The position numbers and the translations under genes were made by a program. The notes under the pieces are model-generated. The model had not been told where the DNA came from. It searched no databases and saw only the letters and a program-made list of their open reading frames with translations. From the IMG/VR virus record IMGVR_UViG_3300032257_000004, positions 27,317-91,316 of that record: a DNA stretch of 64,000 nt; one strand, written 5' to 3'. Below are positions 47,787 to 63,623 of this stretch, one piece after another (position 1 is the first letter of the stretch; the number at the start of each line of letters is the position of its first letter). The DNA comes from a virus.

Positions 47787-48373
47787 TTAGTCACCGTGTC
47801 GCATTTAAATTCGATATCGTTAATGTGGTCGAAAACAGCCCTAGCGGACTCGGGGTCCCCGCCCGACATATCCTTGAACCACTCGGATTTGACTACATCG
47901 TCCAAAATTTCCATCATATGGTCCAGAATGTCGTCTACTTCCCGGTTGCCCATTCGCCGCTCTTCGGCCAGAAACGCGCAGGCTTCGATTACATCCGCCA
48001 ACCAAACGATTTGTTTAATTGGTTTGGGCGGGTCGCTGTAGAAAAGACCGCCAAATCTGGCCGCTGCGGTTTCCGATTCCCACTTTTTGAACGCCTCGTT
48101 GCCCCTCAACCCGGCGTATCCCTTGATGGGATTCGGGATGTCCGAGGTGAACGACTCTTCAATATCGTGCGTCAGCGCCGCTTTCAGCACTCCGTCGAGT
48201 TCGACTCCGTTTTCCGCCATCCACGGAACTTCGCAAATCGAATGAAAAATCCACCTGCAGTACAGAGCCACATAGTAGCTGTGTTCGGCTACGGATTGTG
48301 TGCGGAGTGTTCGAACAATCGACCACCGAGGGACGAATTGCAGGGTTCTTAACTCTCTCGGAAAATTTTTCAT
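47783..48373 (-). CDS. datZ: HD-domain dATP triphosphohydrolase (DatZ-like)
   Basis: VPRWSIV..QSVAEHSY, THDIEE..TSDIPNPIK, LAD; immediately downstream of purZ. Confidence 0.8.
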   Translation of the reverse strand: MKNFPRELRTLQFVPRWSIVRTLRTQSVAEHSYYVALYCRWIFHSICEVPWMAENGVELDGVLKAALTHDIEESFTSDIPNPIKGYAGLRGNEAFKKWESETAAARFGGLFYSDPPKPIKQIVWLADVIEACAFLAEERRMGNREVDDILDHMMEILDDVVKSEWFKDMSGGDPESARAVFDHINDIEFKCDTVTK

Positions 48374-49524
48374 CTCAGTTTAATCCCTTTTTCGGAGTTC
48401 GCCCAATTGACAATGTCGGCCTTTGGGTCCAACTGGAAGTCAATGCTGTTGACAGTGGGGCGCGGAATTACATCCGAGACATCCGGACCGTAACCCAACA
48501 AATCCGGACCCTTACCATTCGCATCCATCTGATTGGAGAGCGCACGGACTTGATTCTTGTCCAGATAGTTGCAGAAATTCAGGAAGACCAAATCCGGTCG
48601 GATATACTCCAGCGATCGCCTGTATTGTTCCATTGAAAAGTCGAAAATCCGGCGCGGGCGTTTAGTCACGGTAGTGAGTTCGGGCTCTACTCCGATCTTC
48701 TCCCACTCCAGTTCCTTTTGGTTTGCATGGGACGGGCCGCTCCACCCCACCATCTTCCCATTTTCGTCGTAGATATTACCAACTCGAATAGGGTAAGTCC
48801 GAACGCACATCAGCGTTTTGTGGAGGAAGGAGGGGTGAAGGCCCGCATCCGACATCGCCTGCGATGGTGTAACATCGCGGGAAGTGCAATAGGGGTAGAA
48901 TCCACCGGAGTTGACACCAAGGCTGAAGCCTTGCGGAACTTCCAGAATCGACCCCCTGCAACTCGCGAATTCGTTGGGGGTGATTTCCCGGACGAAAGGC
49001 CGGAGCCGTTGGTCCAGCGCGGCCACGTTGCCCCGGCGAGCGATTTTGTCGGCCAGTGCAGCGCCAACTCCCTTTTGAGTGGAGCCAATTTTGCTAGTCG
49101 ACGAGCCCGAAGCCTTCTCCGCCGCAGTATGCTCTGGCAGAATTACCGCCGCGTTGGGGTGAATGAACACCCGGTCCCACATGTTATGCTCTTCCAACTC
49201 TTGGAACAGGATGTCGGGGTCGATTATCGCCCCGGCGTCGATAACCGCGAAGCTGTCCTCGTTGATCACCGCTGAAGTCGGGAGATGGAAGGTGGTGAAC
49301 TTGCGATCGCCAATCACTGTTGTATGGCCCGCATTGGCCGAAGCGTTGGTTATGGCGTAGGAGAAACCGTCGACATTCATAGCGACGTATGCGGCGATTA
49401 AACCCTTGCCCGTGGACCCGTATTGGCCATCAATGATGACGGACACTTTCCCCGGTTTGATGAAATCTTCGAGAGGGTTCGGATCAACGTACCCCGAGAT
49501 GATGTTTTCTTCAACCTTTTGCAT
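48370..49524 (-). CDS. purZ: N6-succino-2-amino-2'-deoxyadenylate synthase
   Basis: PurA fold with DGQYGSTGKG (Ser replacing the PurA Asp), NAGHT, GSTQKGVG, YPYCTSR, RTYPIRVGN, ELTTVTKRPRR, LNFCNY (no TKLD). Confidence 0.92.
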   Translation of the reverse strand: MQKVEENIISGYVDPNPLEDFIKPGKVSVIIDGQYGSTGKGLIAAYVAMNVDGFSYAITNASANAGHTTVIGDRKFTTFHLPTSAVINEDSFAVIDAGAIIDPDILFQELEEHNMWDRVFIHPNAAVILPEHTAAEKASGSSTSKIGSTQKGVGAALADKIARRGNVAALDQRLRPFVREITPNEFASCRGSILEVPQGFSLGVNSGGFYPYCTSRDVTPSQAMSDAGLHPSFLHKTLMCVRTYPIRVGNIYDENGKMVGWSGPSHANQKELEWEKIGVEPELTTVTKRPRRIFDFSMEQYRRSLEYIRPDLVFLNFCNYLDKNQVRALSNQMDANGKGPDLLGYGPDVSDVIPRPTVNSIDFQLDPKADIVNWANSEKGIKLR

Positions 49525-52162: not shown

Positions 52163-52422
52163 TCGAGGTCCTCGGGTGCCTCAATGAAGAGCCCGATTTC
52201 TTTGGCCCATTGAGAGTCGACAACTCCGTCCTCAATCATAATTCCGATTAACTTTTCAAGGGTGGCGATGGACTGCGACGCATAGTCGTCATAACAGTCT
52301 TTTAGAAACTTGATATCCTCCATGGCGTTCAAATCCGGGTCGACACTACACCGGGCCCGTTGAAAAGATATTCTAGACGCCGCCAGCGTCTCCAGAAGGA
52401 TCGTAAAACTCAGGTCTCGCAT
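52159..52422 (-). CDS. hypothetical protein
   Basis: GGAG RBS. Confidence 0.55.
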   Translation of the reverse strand: MRDLSFTILLETLAASRISFQRARCSVDPDLNAMEDIKFLKDCYDDYASQSIATLEKLIGIMIEDGVVDSQWAKEIGLFIEAPEDLE

Positions 52423-52939
52423 TTCTAAGAGTCTCCATGAATTCCAGAAAGTCTTTCTCGTCCATCGAGCCCTTCGCGAGATTGCAAGTTACACTCACGA
52501 ATTGTACGTTGCCCTCGACATAACCTTCGGAACTATTTATCCGATCTATAGAAGCCAACTTGTGGGGCTTGACCTTTATATTGGCGTGGCTCTGGAGTTT
52601 CAACTTGATTCCAGTATACCGGCACCGCCCCTTTTGGTGTCTCCATAGCTGCTTAATATACACAGGATCGATGGTTACGTCTATGCCGGATTTGCGGGAC
52701 CGATTCTTAAGGCTGTTGTAGTAGTATCGGTAGGGGTCGTGAGTTCCCCGCTTCTTGTCCGCGTACGAAATTAATCGGTCAACTGCTTTTCGATATTTGG
52801 TAGCGCATCCAATGGAGCAAAAGAATTCGATCTGGCCACGAACGAGACCCTTGCGGGCGTCTCCCCAAGGTTTCATGAACTGAACTTCACAATTGGCGCA
52901 TACCATTGGAATTCGACGCATGGGGGGATTGCACACCAT
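52373..52939 (-). CDS. HNH-like (homing-type) endonuclease
   Basis: QKGRCRYTG...SIDRINSSEGY..GNVQFV...NLAK; N-terminal CxxC/FCS..C. Confidence 0.75.
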   Translation of the reverse strand: MVCNPPMRRIPMVCANCEVQFMKPWGDARKGLVRGQIEFFCSIGCATKYRKAVDRLISYADKKRGTHDPYRYYYNSLKNRSRKSGIDVTIDPVYIKQLWRHQKGRCRYTGIKLKLQSHANIKVKPHKLASIDRINSSEGYVEGNVQFVSVTCNLAKGSMDEKDFLEFMETLRNARPEFYDPSGDAGGV

Positions 52940-52977
52940 GGAGAGTATTCGGTCAACAGAATGTATTGAACCCCATC

Positions 52978-53006
52978 TTGATGTACCTATCCACCTATGG
53001 TATGGT
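52978..53006 (+). promoter_or_regulatory. tmRNA promoter
   Basis: TTGATG-17-TATGGT. Confidence 0.6.
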
Positions 53007-53012
53007 GATCTC

Positions 53013-53075
53013 GCTTTTTATGAGGCTCCTAGCTATTGCCACTGGACGCGGGTGCAATTCCCGCCGCCTCCACCA
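53013..53075 (+). ncRNA. ssrA: two-piece tmRNA, acceptor piece (5' end approximate)
   Basis: T arm GCGGG-TGCAATT-CCCGC, then CGCCTCC-ACCA; pairs with GGGGGCG at 53255, including the G3:U70 Ala determinant. Confidence 0.9.
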
Positions 53076-53254
53076 TGAATGCACCTAGAAGGGGTTTAGT
53101 CGGCTAAGGCTAACCGCTTCGAACATACTAAGCCGTCCGGTGTTAGTCCACTGGAAAACAAAGCGGCGGGACGCTAATCCCGCAGATGCCACTCCCCCGG
53201 CTGGGTGGCCTTCCCGTTGGGGATGTAGCTTAAGTAGTACGGTGCGTTCTTGAT

Positions 53255-53428
53255 GGGGGCGAATTAGGTATCGACAGGGTAAGATCGAAGAGAAGAGAAA
53301 GCCGGGTGAGGCCCGCTATAGGCTCAAATTCAATAAATGTCAACGATAACGACATTGTGGAGCAGGAGCAGCTTCTCGCTGCGTAACGTTTCCGGGGCAA
53401 GGGGGTGCCTAGCAACAGAAACCCCCAC
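53255..53428 (+). ncRNA. ssrA: two-piece tmRNA, coding piece; tag (A)VNDNDIVEQEQLLAA
   Basis: GGGGGCGAA...TCGAC 5' end; tag frame 53339-53386 after ATAAAT; GCAACAGAA 3' motif. Confidence 0.9.
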
Positions 53429-53460
53429 TTAATAGCAATCGGTGTAGCGCTGCACCGCTA

Positions 53461-53510
53461 GAAAGCCCCCGGTTCTTCTCCTTCGTTGTGGCCGGGGGCT
53501 TTCGTTTATT
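53461..53510. terminator. bidirectional terminator; its loop is antisense to the early-gene RBS motif
   Basis: Stem 53461-53473/53491-53503, loop TCTTCTCCTTCGTTGTG. Confidence 0.75.
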
Positions 53511-53757
53511 AAGACATCAGGGTGGCGAGTCTAACCACGGTCAGCGCCATTATAAAAAGCCCCGCGAAAAAGGTAATCTTGCCCATCAACACGGACGACT
53601 TATACTCCATCTCGTTCATCTCCGTGCGGAGGCAGTTGTCCCCGTCCAGCATTCCCCGGATCGAAGCGTTGCGCCAAATCTGGCACATTCGGACGTGGGT
53701 AAAGAGCGTAACCATCCAGACAACGACTGTAATAACTAGCAAAACGTAATACCACAT
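53509..53757 (-). CDS. small membrane protein (2 TM)
   Basis: MWYYVLLVIT...; GGAG RBS. Confidence 0.6.
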   Translation of the reverse strand: MWYYVLLVITVVVWMVTLFTHVRMCQIWRNASIRGMLDGDNCLRTEMNEMEYKSSVLMGKITFFAGLFIMALTVVRLATLMS

Positions 53758-53815: not shown

Positions 53816-55480
53816 TTAGTCGCGGAGGAAGGACTCCACGATATTGTAGGCGCTGGCATCAAAGCCTGAGACCTGCAGATTAAGCGGGTCATCCGGCAGT
53901 TGAGCAGTACCCGCCCGCGAACCGGCCAGTTGCATTTCGACCGCCTTGCAGTTCGGGTTCCGCTTGCGACGGTATTCGTCGCACATCTGGAAGGTATGCC
54001 GCCATCCGGCCCATGATTCGGAGTCGGTGAGCATTACCACCGCATCAAAATCGTTCTTGGCCTTAAGCGCCACATCGAATGGGATAGCACAGTTAGTGCC
54101 TCCGCCCGACCTTGCTTGCATCACAATGCTGTCGATCGTGGTTCGCTTCGTGATCGGGATGTAGTTGTTCGCGGAGGTATCGAAGCCAATGATATGGACA
54201 TTCGACTCCATTCGAACAAAGACGTAGGCCATCAGTGCCGCGATTTCAGCGGGGTTGACCACTGCGCCCGACCAGCCCATAGAACCTGAGGTGTCGACCG
54301 CCAGAAGGGTTGGCTTGGTGATCTGGTGCCCCTCCGAGTATTTGATCGACAAATCAAAGGCGTCGGAGAGGGCCTCGACCACACGGTTAGAGGGTTTCCA
54401 CTCTCCCGACCCACGCAGCCCCCGGCCACTCGCGTACGTCCGAGCAGCATAGAGCAGGTGGAAGGGGTGAATGTTACTCCTCCGGATAGCCTCTTCATTG
54501 TTCAGGCGTTCAACGACGAATTTCTCCGCCACCGAATTGAAGTCGATAACTCCGCGTTTGGTCATGTTGCCCAAATTGCGGACCATCGCCATCATCGGCA
54601 TATGGGGAAGCAGTGCGTCCCATACCATCGGGTTTTTCAGGTCCTCAGTCGGCACCGCTTCGCGTGGAAGCCGGTGTTGCCGAATAAGGTCCAGTTTGGT
54701 CCCGATATTGTCGCTGATATGCAGAGTATTCGCCGCCGCCAACCGATCGGGCAGGCGCGCGGCCTGCTCCGGCTCGCCTTTCGGGGAGATATCGGCGTAG
54801 AGCGCGTTCTTGTCCGCTCCACCTACTGCCCACGAAATCAACGCCCGCGCTTGCACGGTGTCGGCAACATCCTCGTACTCGAAGGATGGACGGCCTTTTT
54901 TGGCCACGCCCGGTCTGGCAATACGAAGGACGTCGCGGAACGACATACCTTCGCGCTGGAAGTATTTGATGAACTGGTTTTCCAGATCGCCAACACTTCG
55001 TGTGGTGAACCATCGCGACACTTGCCGTTGCAGGCCCGACCCGCCGATCCCGCGCATCGTTTTCAGATACTGCAGGAATTTGAACAGTTGGGTGCCGGTT
55101 CGAAGCAGTGTCGGGATTTTCGACATTGCGTACGACCGTTCGTCGTCGGTGCCGTTCGAGCATGCCTGGGCGAATACATAGAGGGCTGCATCCAACTTGT
55201 GGACCCGGCCATTCGTCAGCGCTTCGTCGAGATAGTCGACGGTCGCCCGGTGCATCGCTTGAACGGCTCGGAGTGACGACTCCGCCGATTCGATGGTGAC
55301 ATCCCGCTCGTTCGCGTAGTAAGTCCCGCCTTCAGTACCGATGGTAACGAAGCGGCGCATTCGATCGAAATCCGACTGTTGGAACGCAAACGCGCCCGCG
55401 TCGTTTTTCACCATATTTTTTCCCGGCACCGCTTGGCTCTGCGGCGTCGAGTTCTGATTTACATGGTCGGTGATTCTCAT
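53816..55480 (-). CDS. rsr: Ro60/Rsr RNA-binding protein (TROVE plus vWA)
   Basis: TPQSQ..MVKNDAGAFAF..RRFVTIGTEGGTYY; MPMMAMVRNLGNMT; IHPF; MIDAS LAVDTSGSM; GGGTNC; LTDSESW. Confidence 0.95.
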   Translation of the reverse strand: MRITDHVNQNSTPQSQAVPGKNMVKNDAGAFAFQQSDFDRMRRFVTIGTEGGTYYANERDVTIESAESSLRAVQAMHRATVDYLDEALTNGRVHKLDAALYVFAQACSNGTDDERSYAMSKIPTLLRTGTQLFKFLQYLKTMRGIGGSGLQRQVSRWFTTRSVGDLENQFIKYFQREGMSFRDVLRIARPGVAKKGRPSFEYEDVADTVQARALISWAVGGADKNALYADISPKGEPEQAARLPDRLAAANTLHISDNIGTKLDLIRQHRLPREAVPTEDLKNPMVWDALLPHMPMMAMVRNLGNMTKRGVIDFNSVAEKFVVERLNNEEAIRRSNIHPFHLLYAARTYASGRGLRGSGEWKPSNRVVEALSDAFDLSIKYSEGHQITKPTLLAVDTSGSMGWSGAVVNPAEIAALMAYVFVRMESNVHIIGFDTSANNYIPITKRTTIDSIVMQARSGGGTNCAIPFDVALKAKNDFDAVVMLTDSESWAGWRHTFQMCDEYRRKRNPNCKAVEMQLAGSRAGTAQLPDDPLNLQVSGFDASAYNIVESFLRD

Positions 55481-55627
55481 GACCATACTCCCTTTCTTTC
55501 CCCAATACAAATGAGGCCCGAACAGCTTGTTTGCCATTCGGGCCTCTCGGAAAAGCCGGACTGTCGCGGGGAAACACAACGCTGTTCGGCTTTTATACAG
55601 CGACGGATTAGATCGCTGTTGTTGAGA

Positions 55628-55695
55628 GGCCGAACGTGTGAGTGCGATAGAGGAGTTTATTTTAGAAGAATAACCCTCAGTGCTTCAGTCCGACC
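55628..55695 (-). ncRNA. Y RNA-like unit E (Ro-binding stem only)
   Basis: GGTCGGACTGAAGCACTGAGGGTTAT...CACACGTTCGGCC. Confidence 0.75.
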
Positions 55696-55708
55696 AGTAT
55701 GTTAGTGC

Positions 55709-55830
55709 GGAAGAACGTGTAATGAGAACGGAGTCGCTCCCCAATTTGGAGCAGTAGCGCCCGATTTGTAGCTTTCGCCTAAGGGCGCAGGAGTCGAACC
55801 TGCTAACAACCGTTACTCTTCAGTCCTTCC
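55709..55830 (-). ncRNA. Y RNA unit D (YrlA-like: T arm, acceptor-like stem, D-like arm)
   Basis: GGACTGAAG...GCAGG-TTCGACT-CCTGC...GCTCC-AAATTGG-GGAGC...CACGTTC. Confidence 0.8.
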
Positions 55831-55843
55831 AGTATGTTAGTGC

Positions 55844-55931
55844 GAAAGAACGTGTAATGAAAACGGAGTCGCTCCCCAATTTGGAGCACAAGCGGCGAGC
55901 CTGCTGATAACCGTTACTCTTCAGTCCTTTC
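55844..55931 (-). ncRNA. Y RNA unit C (duplicate of D lacking the acceptor stem)
   Basis: Near-identical to unit D in stem and D arm; degenerate T arm GCAGG-CTCGCCG-CTTGT. Confidence 0.75.
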
Positions 55932-55985
55932 AAAAACTGGTGCCGGGGAAGATTGAAAAGCCCCACCGGCAGGCTTTCATTTAAG

Positions 55986-56123
55986 TATCCGAACGTGGTA
56001 TGGAAAGGATGTTTTACCTTGCTCTACCAGCTGAGCTATCCCCCTTCATTGGCAGGGGGAGCAGGACTCGAACCTACGACCTAGGGCTCCTAAAGCGATA
56101 ACCCTTATCCGTCAGTCCGGACA
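55986..56123 (-). ncRNA. yrlA: YrlA-type Y RNA unit B with a full permuted tRNA-like domain
   Basis: CCGGACTGAC..GGGTTATC; T arm GTAGG-TTCGAGT-CCTGC; closed acceptor TCCCCCT-GCCAATGA-AGGGGGA; D arm GCTC-AGCTGGTA-GAGC; CACGTTCGG. Confidence 0.9.
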
Positions 56124-56194
56124 CTATCTCGATTTAACCGCCACCTGTCATCTTGCATTCCCCTTTAAACTTGTAGTCGCCCTGTAAAGATAAA

Positions 56195-56258
56195 GGTGAA
56201 CGTGTGAGTGCAGTGAGGGGTCATCATTTGCCAATAACCCTCGGTGCTTCAGTCCACC
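56195..56258 (-). ncRNA. Y RNA-like unit A (Ro-binding stem only)
   Basis: GGTGGACTGAAGCACCGAGGGTTAT...CACACGTTCACC; paralog of unit E. Confidence 0.75.
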
Positions 56259-59659: not shown

Positions 59660-60113
59660 GTCGGGCGGCGCAGCGCCCCCGGCCCCCGCCGGGGGGAGCC
59701 CCGGCCCCGCCCCCGGCCCCGCCGGAGGCGGGCGGAGAAAGGAGCAGAACGACGCCAGACCAGACGGACCCCGCGAATCGCGGCGAGCCACCAGCACCCG
59801 GAGCCGAACCGAAGCCCGACCCCCCGCCGAGAGGCGGCAGGCAGAGCCCAAGGCAGACCGACCGGGGCCCCCCACGGGGGGAGGCAGACAAGGGAGAGAA
59901 CACAGCCGGAGACCCCCGGCGCGAGGCCCCGAGAGGGGCGGAGCGCAGGCAGGACCGGCGACCGAGGGAGACCGAACCGCCCCGAACCGAGAGGACGCGA
60001 GACAGCCACGCAGGCAGACCACCGCCCGAGCCGCGAAGCGCGAACACCGAAGGCAAGGCAGGCAAGGCCCCACGGGAAAGCAAAGCCGAAACGCCGCACC
60101 GACACGCGGCGTC
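59660..60113 (+). ncRNA. putative ~454-nt uridine-depleted structured RNA released by hammerhead 1
   Basis: Only one T (59778) in 59662-60111; bounded by a promoter and a ribozyme cleavage site. Confidence 0.65.
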
Positions 60114-60152
60114 CGCATGGGCGGGCCCCATGCGCTGACGAGGCATCCCGCC
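60085..60152 (+). ncRNA. hammerhead ribozyme, type II (HH1); cleavage after C60113
   Basis: GCC-GAAA-CGCCGC/GCGGCG-TC-CGCATGGG/CCCATGCG-CTGACGA-GGC; GGCGGG (60120-60125) can pair with CCCGCC (60147-60152). Confidence 0.88.
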
Positions 60153-60180
60153 GAGCAGAACCACAACGAAGGACGACATC

Positions 60181-60678
60181 ATGTCGAATGCAACCGAAGC
60201 ACAAGGCGAGTGCACAAACGCCACCCCCGAAGCCGAGGCGCACGATCCGAAGCGCCCCATCCGGAACATCTCCGCGATGAAAACCCCGGCGCTCCGGAAG
60301 CGCCTGCAGGACGCGGGCTTGGACGTGGCCCCACGGGCCAATCGCGCCCGCCTGATTGAGGCGGCACGGGCCGCTGGCCTTTGGCGCTACGATGGCGACC
60401 AAGTACCGGCCAAGTACAAGGCCAAGTACGGACGCACCCAATCGTGCGACGACGACGTGGCCACGTCGCTCAAGGACGCAGTCACCGGAGCCGATGGCTC
60501 CTGCGATCTGGACGCCGTCCGGAACGTGGCGATCGCGAATGACATCGATCCCAAGCGCTGGGGCCACTTGAACGTGGGCATGCAGCGCATGAATCTCGGG
60601 AATGTCCTGAGGGCGATGGTCAAGCGCGGTGAGTACGTCATCGTGGGCACTTCGGAGTGGAATCCGGAAGCCGCCTAG
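60181..60678 (+). CDS. first early gene after HH1; hypothetical
   Basis: ACAACGAAGGA RBS; paralogous domain in 10783-11232. Confidence 0.8.
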   Translation: MSNATEAQGECTNATPEAEAHDPKRPIRNISAMKTPALRKRLQDAGLDVAPRANRARLIEAARAAGLWRYDGDQVPAKYKAKYGRTQSCDDDVATSLKDAVTGADGSCDLDAVRNVAIANDIDPKRWGHLNVGMQRMNLGNVLRAMVKRGEYVIVGTSEWNPEAA

Positions 60679-60741
60679 GCCAACCACGGAGAGCGGGGGC
60701 GAGAGCCCCCGCGATCCAATCAACCAACGAAGGAGAATACG

Positions 60742-60966
60742 ATGCAGATGATGATTGTTGTTGACGCCGCAATACACGGCGACGTCGAGATGGGGCGATC
60801 TTTTGCCGCCCAACTCGGATGGAAACCAGAACTCCAGCAGGAAGTGAATCCGAAGATCGGATACTTCCAGCTGGTAGTGCCTGAATACATCGCAGACCAC
60901 ATAGCCGAATTCGGATGGATAGAGTTTAGCACTCCGAAATTCCGAATCGAGATCACGTGGCCCTAG
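60742..60966 (+). CDS. hypothetical early protein
   Basis: CAACGAAGGAGAA RBS. Confidence 0.7.
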   Translation: MQMMIVVDAAIHGDVEMGRSFAAQLGWKPELQQEVNPKIGYFQLVVPEYIADHIAEFGWIEFSTPKFRIEITWP

Positions 60967-61035
60967 ATCGAAACCAAGGCGAGCGCGCGAATGCGCTCGC
61001 TGCGGTCTGCAGGTTGGTCCTGCACTGACGAGATC
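60966..61035 (+). ncRNA. hammerhead ribozyme, type II (HH2); cleavage after C61007
   Basis: GATC-GAAA-CC..GGCGAGCGC/GCGCTCGCT..GG-TC-TGCAGG/CCTGCA-CTGACGA-GATC. Confidence 0.88.
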
Positions 61036-61054
61036 AGTAACGAAGGAGAATGAA

Positions 61055-61300
61055 ATGAATAGAATCCAAATAGAGCGCGATAGCGCCGAATGGGATCGGA
61101 CGCTCGCCTTTCAGGAGGCGTTCATTCAGTGGTTCGGCATCGCCGGATTTGCGCTGATTTTTATTGGCGGAGCCGGAGCGATCATCTTCGGAAGCAATCA
61201 CATGGTCGGCCTGACTATCTGGTCGATGTGCGTTGCCTTCGTTGGCGTGGCGATGTTGATGCTGACGCCTTATTGGCGCACGATTGCGGAGAGCGACTAA
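61055..61300 (+). CDS. small membrane protein
   Basis: Two hydrophobic segments; AACGAAGGAGAA RBS. Confidence 0.7.
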   Translation: MNRIQIERDSAEWDRTLAFQEAFIQWFGIAGFALIFIGGAGAIIFGSNHMVGLTIWSMCVAFVGVAMLMLTPYWRTIAESD

Positions 61301-61452
61301 TGGTCCGCCTCTTGGTAGTGCTGGCCTACGCAGGCAGCATGGTAATGATCGGCCTTGCCCTTTTGGGCGGGGTCGATTTCATCACGGGAATAATGGCATC
61401 GCTCGGAATGGCCGCAGCGGGCAAGATGATCGAAGGAGATCACTGCGACTAA
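61300..61452 (+). CDS. small membrane protein (50 aa)
   Basis: TAATG coupling; hydrophobic. Confidence 0.55.
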   Translation: MVRLLVVLAYAGSMVMIGLALLGGVDFITGIMASLGMAAAGKMIEGDHCD

Positions 61453-61774
61453 CTACATGCTTTCCCTTTAGGTCGCCGGTCAACCTCTCCGGCTGTGTTC
61501 ACCTGTATTTGTGTGTGGTTGGCTAGAATGCATATCGATTCATGAGCGGAATTTGTGTGAAGACGAATGGAACCAATCCCGGTTTATAGGCGGACCTTTG
61601 TTTTTCTTTAGAATAGATGTCGATTCTTAGGCGAATCTTTTTTCTTTTTTCTGGAATCAACGTCGGTTCTTAAGCGGGCGTTGGAATGCGTTCGGAATCG
61701 GCCTTGACGCGCAGCCCCCGCCGTGGTATGGTACGGATGCGGCACTCCGCCGCGAACAACGAAGGACGAATACA

Positions 61775-62266
61775 ATGAACGTGAACCAATTCATCGAGCG
61801 GATTCTGAATCGGACGTACGATCCACAGAACACGCGGGTTGCATTCGGGGCGGCGGTATCGCCGGAATTCCTGATCCCAGCGGAAGACGTGGGACCGGAA
61901 CTTATGAAGGTGGACGGCGAGGATGTCCTGATTCTCGTGAGCGGAATACGGGCTCGCGGGTTCGACACGCTAGTCGGCGAAATCCGGACCGAGTTCTTGG
62001 CAGAGACGGCCAAAGAACGAGACGAGCCCCGGACCGAATACTTCATCGGTTATTCTGGGCCCCGCGACGAGGCGGACAACTTCCTAGGTCTGATGGGAGT
62101 GGAACTCGTAGAGGTCGAACAGGAGTTAGACGACGGGTTCGTTGCGCTGGCCCTCCTACCCGGTTCGATGGCGGAACTACTGAAAGCCAACGGCGAACTG
62201 GAATTCAGATCAGGCGAATGCACCCTGAACGTAGACATGCCAGACCACTGGCCAGCGGGGCAGTAG
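61775..62266 (+). CDS. acidic hypothetical early protein
   Basis: Own promoter and RBS; terminator follows. Confidence 0.75.
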   Translation: MNVNQFIERILNRTYDPQNTRVAFGAAVSPEFLIPAEDVGPELMKVDGEDVLILVSGIRARGFDTLVGEIRTEFLAETAKERDEPRTEYFIGYSGPRDEADNFLGLMGVELVEVEQELDDGFVALALLPGSMAELLKANGELEFRSGECTLNVDMPDHWPAGQ

Positions 62267-62278
62267 AACACAGGGAGA

Positions 62279-62310
62279 GCGCGGGCTTCGGTCCGCGTTT
62301 TTTCTTTTTT
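62279..62310 (+). terminator. intrinsic terminator
   Basis: GCGCGGGC-TTCG-GTCCGCGT followed by a T tract. Confidence 0.85.
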
Positions 62311-62431
62311 GTGGAATAGGTATCGATTCTACGGCGAACCGGAACTAAGTCGGAATCGGGGTTGCGCGCAGCCCCCGTCTGTGGTACGGTACGGATGCGG
62401 CACGACGCCGCGAACAACGAAGGAAAACAGA

Positions 62432-62827
62432 ATGAAAACGAACCTAGAACTAGCGGCAGAGACCGCCTTCTGGTGCCAGAGCGACGAAGCCGTCGCACAG
62501 CGGACAGACGCGGAACAGACCGCGACCGAATTTCTTCTGGAAGAAATGGACCGAATCGTAAACGACCCGAAAAAAGGCGATTCGGTGGTGATTCGGATGA
62601 AGGGCGAATTCGAAACCGAGATCGCAATAGTCGACTCCAACCACCTTGAATTCCTGAAAACGGAATTTGTTAACAACGACCGATTCGAATTTGAACCCAA
62701 CCCAACCGAAGTGGAAGACAAAATCGGATTCACGATCAGAGAGGGGTTCTTTCACTTCCTCACCGACAAGGACGCGGAATCCACCGCAGAATACCTTACC
62801 TGGTGGGAAAACGGTTCGGACCTCTGA
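62432..62827 (+). CDS. acidic hypothetical early protein
   Basis: Start at the ATG after ACAACGAAGGA. Confidence 0.75.
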   Translation: MKTNLELAAETAFWCQSDEAVAQRTDAEQTATEFLLEEMDRIVNDPKKGDSVVIRMKGEFETEIAIVDSNHLEFLKTEFVNNDRFEFEPNPTEVEDKIGFTIREGFFHFLTDKDAESTAEYLTWWENGSDL

Positions 62828-62913
62828 ACCCGCCATGAACGGGGGTTGCGCGCAGCCCCCGCCTATGGTATGGTATTAGTGCGGCGGTTTGCCGCGAACG
62901 AAGGAGAACGAAA

Positions 62914-63138
62914 ATGGCCTATTCAATACGAATCAACGAGTGGCAACGGAAGTTGCTGGTGGAAGCCATCCAGAACACGCCCTTGGGGGCGATGCCGAAA
63001 ATCGCGGAGAGTGACAATTTCGGTCCCTGCCCCCCGGACGCCGAGGCACAGGAAGCTTGGACCTTGGTTCAGATGTTGGAAGGTCTCCCCGCGCTGGAAG
63101 CGGAGAGCCCCGGCATCCTGAACCTACTCTGCGAGTAG
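62914..63138 (+). CDS. hypothetical early protein
   Basis: Own promoter and RBS. Confidence 0.7.
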   Translation: MAYSIRINEWQRKLLVEAIQNTPLGAMPKIAESDNFGPCPPDAEAQEAWTLVQMLEGLPALEAESPGILNLLCE

Positions 63139-63220
63139 AAGCGGACCGGAACGGGGGTTGCGCTGTCGCAGCCCCCGTGGTACGATTTGGGACTGACAGA
63201 CACAACGAAGGAAAAACGGA

Positions 63221-63532
63221 ATGTCGATTTACTACGTATTCGTGGGGACGAAGATCACCCGGAAATTGGTAACAGAGGCGACACTGGGAACGGACGCGGA
63301 GATATTCGTCCGAGAGGAGGGCGGAAAAGAATTCGCACTCGTGGTGGACGGCAATTACCTTTGGATTCACGACACGCCAGAGCGGACCACTGCGGCGAAA
63401 TACGGTCGAAACGACCCGACACCATGCCTCGAATGGCTGGAGGATAGGTTCGACGTCGAGATTTTCGACGAATACGACCCAAGATTCGAAAACCACCTCG
63501 AAGGAACCGACATCACGGTGTTGGAATTTTAG
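63221..63532 (+). CDS. hypothetical early protein
   Basis: Own promoter and RBS. Confidence 0.7.
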   Translation: MSIYYVFVGTKITRKLVTEATLGTDAEIFVREEGGKEFALVVDGNYLWIHDTPERTTAAKYGRNDPTPCLEWLEDRFDVEIFDEYDPRFENHLEGTDITVLEF

Positions 63533-63623
63533 CGGAACCAACCCGGAACGGGGGTTGCGCTGTCGCAGCCCCCGTGGTATGGTACTAGTGCGGCAAGAGA
63601 CCGCGTAACGAAGGAGAATTGAA

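Follow-up and report, generated by a model that had tools for sequence, protein, structure and literature searches.

The window analysed here, 64 kb of a 91,316-bp virus record that is rated complete and has a terminal overlap of 127 bp, belongs to a tailed phage with genes for terminase, portal, major head protein, DNA polymerase, and ribonucleotide reductase. A DNA search against cultured phages gave no match, and the portal protein is less than 30% identical to that of any cultured phage. The phage is apparently lytic. A PurZ-type adenylosuccinate synthetase is encoded at 48370-49524 of the window (minus strand; phrog_1211, E 5e-69), and the presence of this gene in the sequence suggests a 2-aminoadenine genome. 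A single sequencing run is listed for this DNA, a DNA run from a microbial mat.

Minus-strand genes occupy 10.8-55.6 kb, and plus-strand genes run from ~56.4 kb through the end of the window and round to ~10.7 kb. Embedded among the minus-strand genes is a plus-strand tmRNA gene, flanked by genes for an endonuclease VII-like protein and a Ro60 homologue (Table 1). Upstream of the Ro60 gene, at 55628-56258, Rfam recognized no Y RNA at gathering threshold. Between Ro60 and the tmRNA gene lies a convergent 82-aa ORF for which no family match was found; its start, an ATG behind GGAGA, was picked by eye. Neither Hfq nor CsrA had a match among the phage-encoded proteins.

The tmRNA is of the two-piece, alphaproteobacterial type and scores 99 bits with Rfam model RF01849 and 104 bits with RF04321. 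Its type suggests that the host of the phage belongs to the same clade as the bacteria that carry the small RNAs NfeR1 and AbcR1. The permuted-tmRNA model starts at 53013 and RF01849 ends at 53429; thus, the next 80 nt constitute a 3′ trailer, and this trailer holds two hairpins. The promoter of the unit shares its sigma-70 type with the early and capsid promoters of the phage, and an alignment shows its -35 and -10 elements to be kept in the one relative described below.

Table 1. Features of the tmRNA locus and of the leader-bearing genes, in window coordinates
Feature	Position	Strand	Description and basis
Endonuclease VII/HNH-like gene	52373-52939		flanks the tmRNA gene on one side
tmRNA gene, two-piece (permuted), alphaproteobacterial type	52974..53429	+	tag VNDNDIVEQEQLLAA; ARAGORN, Rfam
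Promoter of the tmRNA unit, sigma-70-type	52978..53006	+	TTGATG-17-TATGGT with TG extension; pattern scan
Small trailer hairpin	53441..53458	+	fold; not conserved in the relative
12-bp GC-rich hairpin, candidate terminator or 3′ stem-loop of the tmRNA unit	53461..53503	+	folds
Predicted open loop UUCUUCUCCUUCGUUGUGG	53473..53491	+	reverse complement of the early-gene leader
U-rich tail UUUCGUUUAUU	53500..53511	+	sequence; TTTATT kept in the relative
Convergent 82-aa ORF	53509..53757	-	hydrophobic stretches; ORF list
Ro60 homologue	53816-55579	-	TROVE and Ro60 vWA domains, Pfam; flanks the tmRNA gene on the other side
Leader site 1, 13-nt match	60161..60173	+	before ATG 60181; behind type II hammerhead 60084-60152
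Leader site 2, 13-nt match	60725..60737	+	before ATG 60742
Leader site 3, 12-nt match	61039..61050	+	before ATG 61055
Leader site 4, 11-nt match	61756..61766	+	before ATG 61775; own promoter 61704; 5′ GCGGC hairpin
Leader site 5, 11-nt match	62414..62424	+	before ATG 62432; own promoter 62362
Leader site 6, 12-nt match	62897..62908	+	before ATG 62914; own promoter 62846
Leader site 7, 12-nt match	63201..63212	+	before ATG 63221; own promoter 63158
Leader site 8, 12-nt match	63607..63618	+	before ATG 63624; own promoter 63555

The long-looped hairpin behind the tmRNA

The larger of the two trailer hairpins starts 32 nt past the end of the tmRNA model, and the stop codon of the convergent 82-aa ORF lies 5 nt from it. 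Its arms (5′, 53461-53472, GAAAGCCCCCGG; 3′, 53492-53503, CCGGGGGCTTTC) form a 12-bp stem with eight G-C pairs, GC-rich as in intrinsic terminators. The loop measures 19 nt, or 17 nt if the pair U53473.G53491 is counted. An earlier note on this DNA had described such a hairpin with an unusually long loop, and both the fold and all of its coordinates proved right. As RNA, the hairpin has a predicted energy of -27.3 kcal/mol on the plus strand (z -4.2) and of -24.7 kcal/mol on the minus strand. A U-rich tail follows it on the plus strand, and no U-tract follows it on the minus strand. The small hairpin leans the same way, with seven pairs on the plus strand and five on the minus strand, a U.G pair being possible on the plus strand only.

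Intrinsic terminators normally have loops of 3-8 nt that are free to vary. At 17-19 nt, the loop behind the tmRNA lies outside this range, and a terminator consensus scan detected only a smaller alternative hairpin at 53480-53498. When unpaired probabilities were computed within a 258-nt RNA comprising the coding piece and the trailer, 11 of the 17 loop bases at 53474-53490 had values of 0.94-1.0 and the other six had values of 0.25-0.35. The hairpin does not belong to the conserved tmRNA structure, as judged both from RF01849 and from the intervening segment found in the relative, and the loop as a part of the tmRNA fold is ruled out by the end of the Rfam model at 53429. A scan of 53380-53560 with 4227 Rfam families gave none at gathering threshold (best, rdlD at 18 bits vs 50), and no antisense-RNA family matched the hairpin, the families scanned including C4, ar14, AbcR, and RsaE. 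The hexamer UCCUUC shows no general enrichment in the hairpin loops of this genome (22% of its copies vs 21% for permuted hexamers), and a general excess of this kind was rejected on these figures.

A leader shared by nine genes

The 9-mer AACGAAGGA occurs 10 times in the window, against an expectation of 0.8, and 0 of 100 shuffles reached this count. Eight copies lie 7-8 nt before plus-strand ATGs (60165-63615); the remaining two are a minus-strand copy inside the loop (53479-53487) and a plus-strand copy inside the ribonucleotide reductase gene (3055). A ninth leader is found outside the window, at genome position 2867 before an ATG at 2884, and has a 12-nt match to the loop. Genome-wide, the count that the earlier note had proposed gives the nine leaders, the copy in the ribonucleotide reductase gene, and two minus-strand copies. 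The extended form of the leader is (C)AACGAAGGA(GAA). The reverse complement of the loop matches the eight leaders of the window over 11-13 nt, in exactly the places where the note had put these matches. The 3′ part of the leader, GGAGAAYGAAA (leaders 60165-63620), resembles the T4 RegB consensus GGAGRAYARAA (PMC3014915). No homologue of RegA or RegB was identified in the phage.

The leader-bearing mRNAs appear to share one building plan. Five of the genes have their own promoters, with TTGCGC or TTGACG, a 17-nt spacer carrying the box GCAGCCCCC, and TATGGT or a close variant. In four of these five, a GCGGC...GCCGC 5′ hairpin comes after the promoter and is followed by an unstructured leader. 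More generally, most leader bases are predicted to be unpaired, and a 5′ hairpin precedes each leader. The type II hammerhead ahead of the first leader was recognized by Rfam; a second candidate before leader 3 (60966-61035) has the core motifs by eye, and there Rfam gave none at E <= 0.1. Pfam returned no family for the nine leader-bearing proteins or for one neighboring gene. This lack of families fits small early or host-takeover genes, although their early expression is something that we infer. Behind other promoters of this type, the ribosome-binding sites are different ones. Thus, the leader marks a subset of nine genes and not the entire early arm, a narrower set than the whole early regulon that the earlier note had in mind. 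Operator-like inverted repeats, (A/G)GAAT-N8-ATTC, also recur in this region (window 61520-61680 and 62305-62335; L039:610-640), downstream of early-arm terminators and upstream of promoters.

The likeness between loop and leader can be put in numbers. On a 23-nt weight matrix built from the nine leaders, the minus strand of the loop scores 19.5 bits and takes rank 10, directly behind the nine training sites; the next sites score 15.2 and 13.9. Per random genome, 0.02 sites of at least 19.5 bits are expected on both strands under an iid model, and 13 of 300 Markov-1 random genomes contained one, for an overall expectation of ~0.02-0.04. The mean energy of the loop/leader duplexes is -21.6 kcal/mol (n = 9 leaders), compared with -12.0 +/- 1.8 kcal/mol for composition-matched shuffled loops (n = 2000), none of which reached the observed value. 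Thus, the base order of the loop matters, and not its pyrimidine content alone. A 16S-type 3′ tail pairs with the leaders at only -6 to -10 kcal/mol. When ~22,800 windows of 40 nt were scanned for duplex energy on both strands of the genome, the nine leaders were all among the top 16, which bears out the proposal that the complementarity is specific to these leaders. Purine-rich windows elsewhere come to -18 to -20 kcal/mol, so that targets stand apart from non-targets by a modest energy gap.

A search of GTDB bacterial genomes with the loop 18-mer returned 17 unrelated matches, and our own rough estimate of the number expected by chance is also ~17. Thus, no host ssrA terminator with this loop exists among the GTDB genomes. 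In Brevirhabdus pacifica (L049:2084-2101), the 18-mer, read on its opposite strand, serves naturally as a ribosome-binding site (CACAACGAAGGAGAACAGTC-GTG) that follows a terminator; the leader type therefore occurs as a ribosome-binding site in at least one alphaproteobacterium.

The second minus-strand copy of AACGAAGGA in the genome (genome 552-566; the plus strand reads CCAACUCCUUCGUUGG) lies just beyond the end of the window; the last gene of the leader-bearing block ends with its stop codon 18 nt upstream. The copy is part of a small hairpin with a 5-bp stem and the loop UCCUUC, and a strong plus-strand terminator follows directly (11-bp stem, loop UAUCCUUC, seven U; L039:552-601). Its reverse complement matches the leaders over at most 12 nt, with duplex energies of -16 to -24 kcal/mol. 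Both minus-strand 9-mer copies of the genome thus adjoin plus-strand transcript ends. The second site ranks below the top 20 on the 23-nt matrix and overlaps a good minus-strand promoter-like site, TTGCCA-16-TAGAAT; for these reasons, it may be unrelated. Rfam found only sub-threshold likeness there, to ar14 (18 vs 58.8), mmgR, and RsaE.

Conservation and strand in one relative

IMG/VR was scanned with the Ro60 neighbor, the portal, the loop 16-mer, a tmRNA pattern, an early-promoter pattern, and two early proteins. These scans found only one relative, a contig of 14.7 kb (L001/L010) whose Ro60 is 74-76% identical. A metagenome scan gave only distant Ro60 genes among the matches listed, and a protein search pointed to closer relatives, P0003 (76%, on a 90,650-bp contig), P0004, and P0005. 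The 14.7-kb contig keeps the order endonuclease, tmRNA, Ro60, and ends ~400 bp beyond Ro60, short of the early region. It has no counterpart of the 82-aa ORF of the window. Its endonuclease VII-like gene contains an extra AACGAAGGA (L001:3045-3053, on the Ro60 strand) that is missing from the homologue in the window and is probably due to chance.

In the relative, ~200 nt separate the tmRNA from the hairpin, and this segment carries a 60-aa, very basic ORF. The ORF (L001:2305-2487, minus strand of the locus) has a good Shine-Dalgarno sequence and no counterpart in the window; in Pfam it gives only a weak match to DUF7022 (E 3e-4, below cut-off). This segment indicates that the element is the 3′ end of the transcription unit and not a part of the tmRNA.

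The intervening segment and the trailer of the tmRNA cannot be aligned between the two phages, and the hairpin is nevertheless kept. Indeed, the longest identical run of the whole tmRNA locus is TTCTCCTTCGTTGTGGCCGGGGGCT, 25 nt that make up most of the loop and the 3′ arm, and this run exceeds any identical stretch within the tmRNA itself. Seventeen of the 19 loop bases are identical in this one relative. The two substitutions lie opposite the spacer between Shine-Dalgarno sequence and AUG, where the nine leaders also vary.

The stem of the relative differs by one compensatory change (A-U to G-C) and by one C-to-U change. Through the latter, the tmRNA strand has a U.G pair where the opposite strand has an A.C mismatch; thus, the stem of the relative folds on the tmRNA strand only. 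The predicted energies of its hairpin are -24.5 kcal/mol (z -3.1) for the tmRNA strand and -16.0 kcal/mol (z +0.6) for the other. This upholds the earlier proposal that folding is favored on the plus strand. The tail after the hairpin reads CACCUUUAUUU in the relative where the window has UUUCGUUUAUU, and ~20 nt downstream, on the tmRNA strand, the relative has a second hairpin with a better U-tract, UUCAGUUUUU. Sequence comparison with this single relative provides good evidence that the element works as a plus-strand RNA and that the sequence of its loop is under selection.

A proposed anti-leader RNA, its alternatives, and known systems

The interpretation that we tentatively prefer is that the loop is an extended anti-Shine-Dalgarno seed on a plus-strand RNA, which pairs with the nine leaders and blocks 30S subunits. 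We consider this quite possible, if a little short of probable. It starts from what is observed, namely the complementarity, its specificity, the predicted open loop, the plus-strand fold, and the conservation in one relative; beyond these, we infer that the RNA is stable, acts in trans, and represses. The hairpin would then be the 3′ stem-loop of the plus-strand tmRNA transcription unit, either the terminator itself or a hairpin just before it. Candidates for the effector RNA are the 3′ trailer that remains once the tmRNA is processed, a 3′-end fragment, or the coding piece with the trailer attached. The loop would pair over 11-13 nt with the leader, 7-8 nt upstream of the start codons of nine small ORFan genes. 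Since this pairing would cover the ribosome-binding site, the translation, and probably also the stability, of the nine mRNAs would be lowered together. A duplex of 11-13 bp within a loop of 17-19 nt is sterically demanding, and probably only part of it forms. As it accumulates, the structured RNA would increasingly outcompete 30S subunits. Given the promoter type that the tmRNA unit shares with the early genes, the RNA would be made alongside its targets; any logic of timing drawn from this is conjecture.

The hairpin could instead be an ordinary convergent terminator that regulates nothing, with a loop kept for some other reason such as termination efficiency or RNA stability and a likeness to the leader that reflects coincidence or shared ancestry. 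Some complementarity to Shine-Dalgarno sequences is a property of any C/U-rich loop, yet none of the 2000 composition-matched shuffled loops paired as well as the real one. The ~0.02-0.04 such sites expected by chance per genome must be read with the knowledge that several repeated motifs could have been picked, and the 17 occurrences of the loop 18-mer in bacterial genomes, one of them the Brevirhabdus ribosome-binding site, are close to the chance number. The conservation comes from a single relative (n = 2). Within that comparison, however, the 19-nt loop is 17/19 identical despite the unalignable intervening segment and trailer, and both substitutions fall exactly where the leaders vary. 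On balance, we regard an ordinary terminator as rather unlikely.

Read from the minus strand, or as the site of a bound protein, the loop might be a mimic of the leader that titrates a leader-recognizing factor or 30S subunits. The site could be part of the 3′ UTR of the convergent minus-strand mRNAs (Ro60 and membrane-protein genes) or could serve a RegA-like or RegB-like factor. The minus-strand copy is indeed a full-length leader match that includes the purine-rich part after the Shine-Dalgarno sequence (19.5 bits), it occupies a 3′ UTR position of minus-strand genes in both phages, and the likeness of GGAGAAYGAAA to the T4 RegB sequence GGAGRAYARAA (PMC3014915) makes a leader-reading protein conceivable. 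However, owing to the A.C mismatch, the hairpin of the relative folds no better on the minus strand than shuffled sequence does (z +0.6), and this strand asymmetry weakens the minus-strand decoy that the earlier note had offered as its alternative. In addition, the conserved U-rich tail sits on the plus strand, and no candidate RNA-binding regulator was found, either by Pfam among the leader genes or in the form of CsrA or Hfq. No start codon follows the minus-strand copy within reach in either phage, and its use as a real ribosome-binding site was rejected on the same ground. We hold a leader mimic to be improbable. Still less likely, and by a wide measure so, is a role in cis within the tmRNA precursor, in which the loop would pair with the purine stretch 53288-53302 of the coding piece or guide the processing, folding, or stability of the two-piece tmRNA in another way. 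A pairing of the loop with CGAAGAGAAGAG in the coding piece is possible around one bulge (-13.2 kcal/mol), the stretch is kept in the relative, where it reads AACGAAGAGAAGAG, and the 3′ domains of phage tmRNAs can carry regulatory RNA, as does the glutamine riboswitch of Melnitz (PMC9004378). In the Rfam structure, however, the acceptor piece already uses this stretch as its partner in P2. The energy of about -13 kcal/mol compares with -18 to -26 kcal/mol for the leaders, and in the relative ~200 nt and an ORF lie between tmRNA and hairpin.

If the loop is indeed an anti-leader seed, what would be new is a phage-specific leader common to nine genes and matched by one long, terminator-type loop. 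A host-takeover gene set would answer to one antisense seed by way of a shared leader built for the purpose, giving a compact and portable switch in which one RNA acts on many targets. Moreover, a function would be assigned to the 3′ trailer of a phage tmRNA gene; the role of phage tmRNA genes as a class is itself unclear. A broader proposal, which we consider conceivable but doubtful, is that this lytic phage controls nine ORFan early genes by RNA alone, with the loop at the 3′ end of the tmRNA unit, possibly still attached to the coding piece, as the master and the second anti-leader hairpin providing feedback. If true, this would be an RNA counterpart of T4 RegA and RegB; the same phage also has Ro60, a hammerhead ribozyme, and a tmRNA. 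To our knowledge, small-RNA regulation in lytic phages has been little explored, and the RNA-level shut-off of early genes that we know of is carried out by proteins, T4 RegA and RegB.

It is useful to set the element beside known regulators. In RNAIII, the terminator hairpin H14 is one of the pairing loops, and the loops of P1 c4 and P4 CI base-pair to repeats in their targets that overlap a ribosome-binding site. C-rich or CU-rich loop seeds such as those of RNAIII, RsaE/RoxS, and CJnc190 are widespread; they pair with G-rich Shine-Dalgarno regions and block initiation (PMC12205990). Unlike the element described here, those RNAs are host regulators of unrelated sequence, consist of several hairpins, and have no tie to phage early genes. 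Phage P1 uses a processed antisense RNA (cited in PMC8546580). The P1 c4 sites are two in one immunity operon of a temperate phage, whereas the element described here would act on nine separate mRNAs, and its phage is apparently lytic.

In T4, RegB cuts GGAG in early-gene Shine-Dalgarno sequences with the consensus GGAGRAYARAA, and RegB and RegA inactivate early mRNAs via their translation initiation regions (PMC3014915). The analogy is functional, since RegB and RegA are proteins and the effector proposed here is an RNA loop. The OM43 phage Melnitz has a permuted ssrA of alphaproteobacterial type with an early-type promoter and a regulatory RNA element on its 3′ side (PMC9004378). That element is a glutamine riboswitch, a sensor acting in cis, and not an antisense loop directed against the phage's own genes. 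Finally, NfeR1 (alpha-r14) and AbcR1 of Alphaproteobacteria silence many mRNAs at the ribosome-binding site through anti-Shine-Dalgarno motifs in hairpin loops (PMC10746234, PMC4152367), an established precedent for a mechanism of the kind proposed. As in NfeR1 and AbcR1/2, the anti-Shine-Dalgarno motif of the phage would be presented in an unpaired hairpin loop, here by prediction. The seeds of NfeR1 and AbcR1 are short generic motifs (CCUCCUCCC, UCCC) directed at host transporter and metabolic mRNAs; the phage, in contrast, encodes a loop of 17-19 nt behind its tmRNA, with a match of 11-13 nt to a leader of its own.
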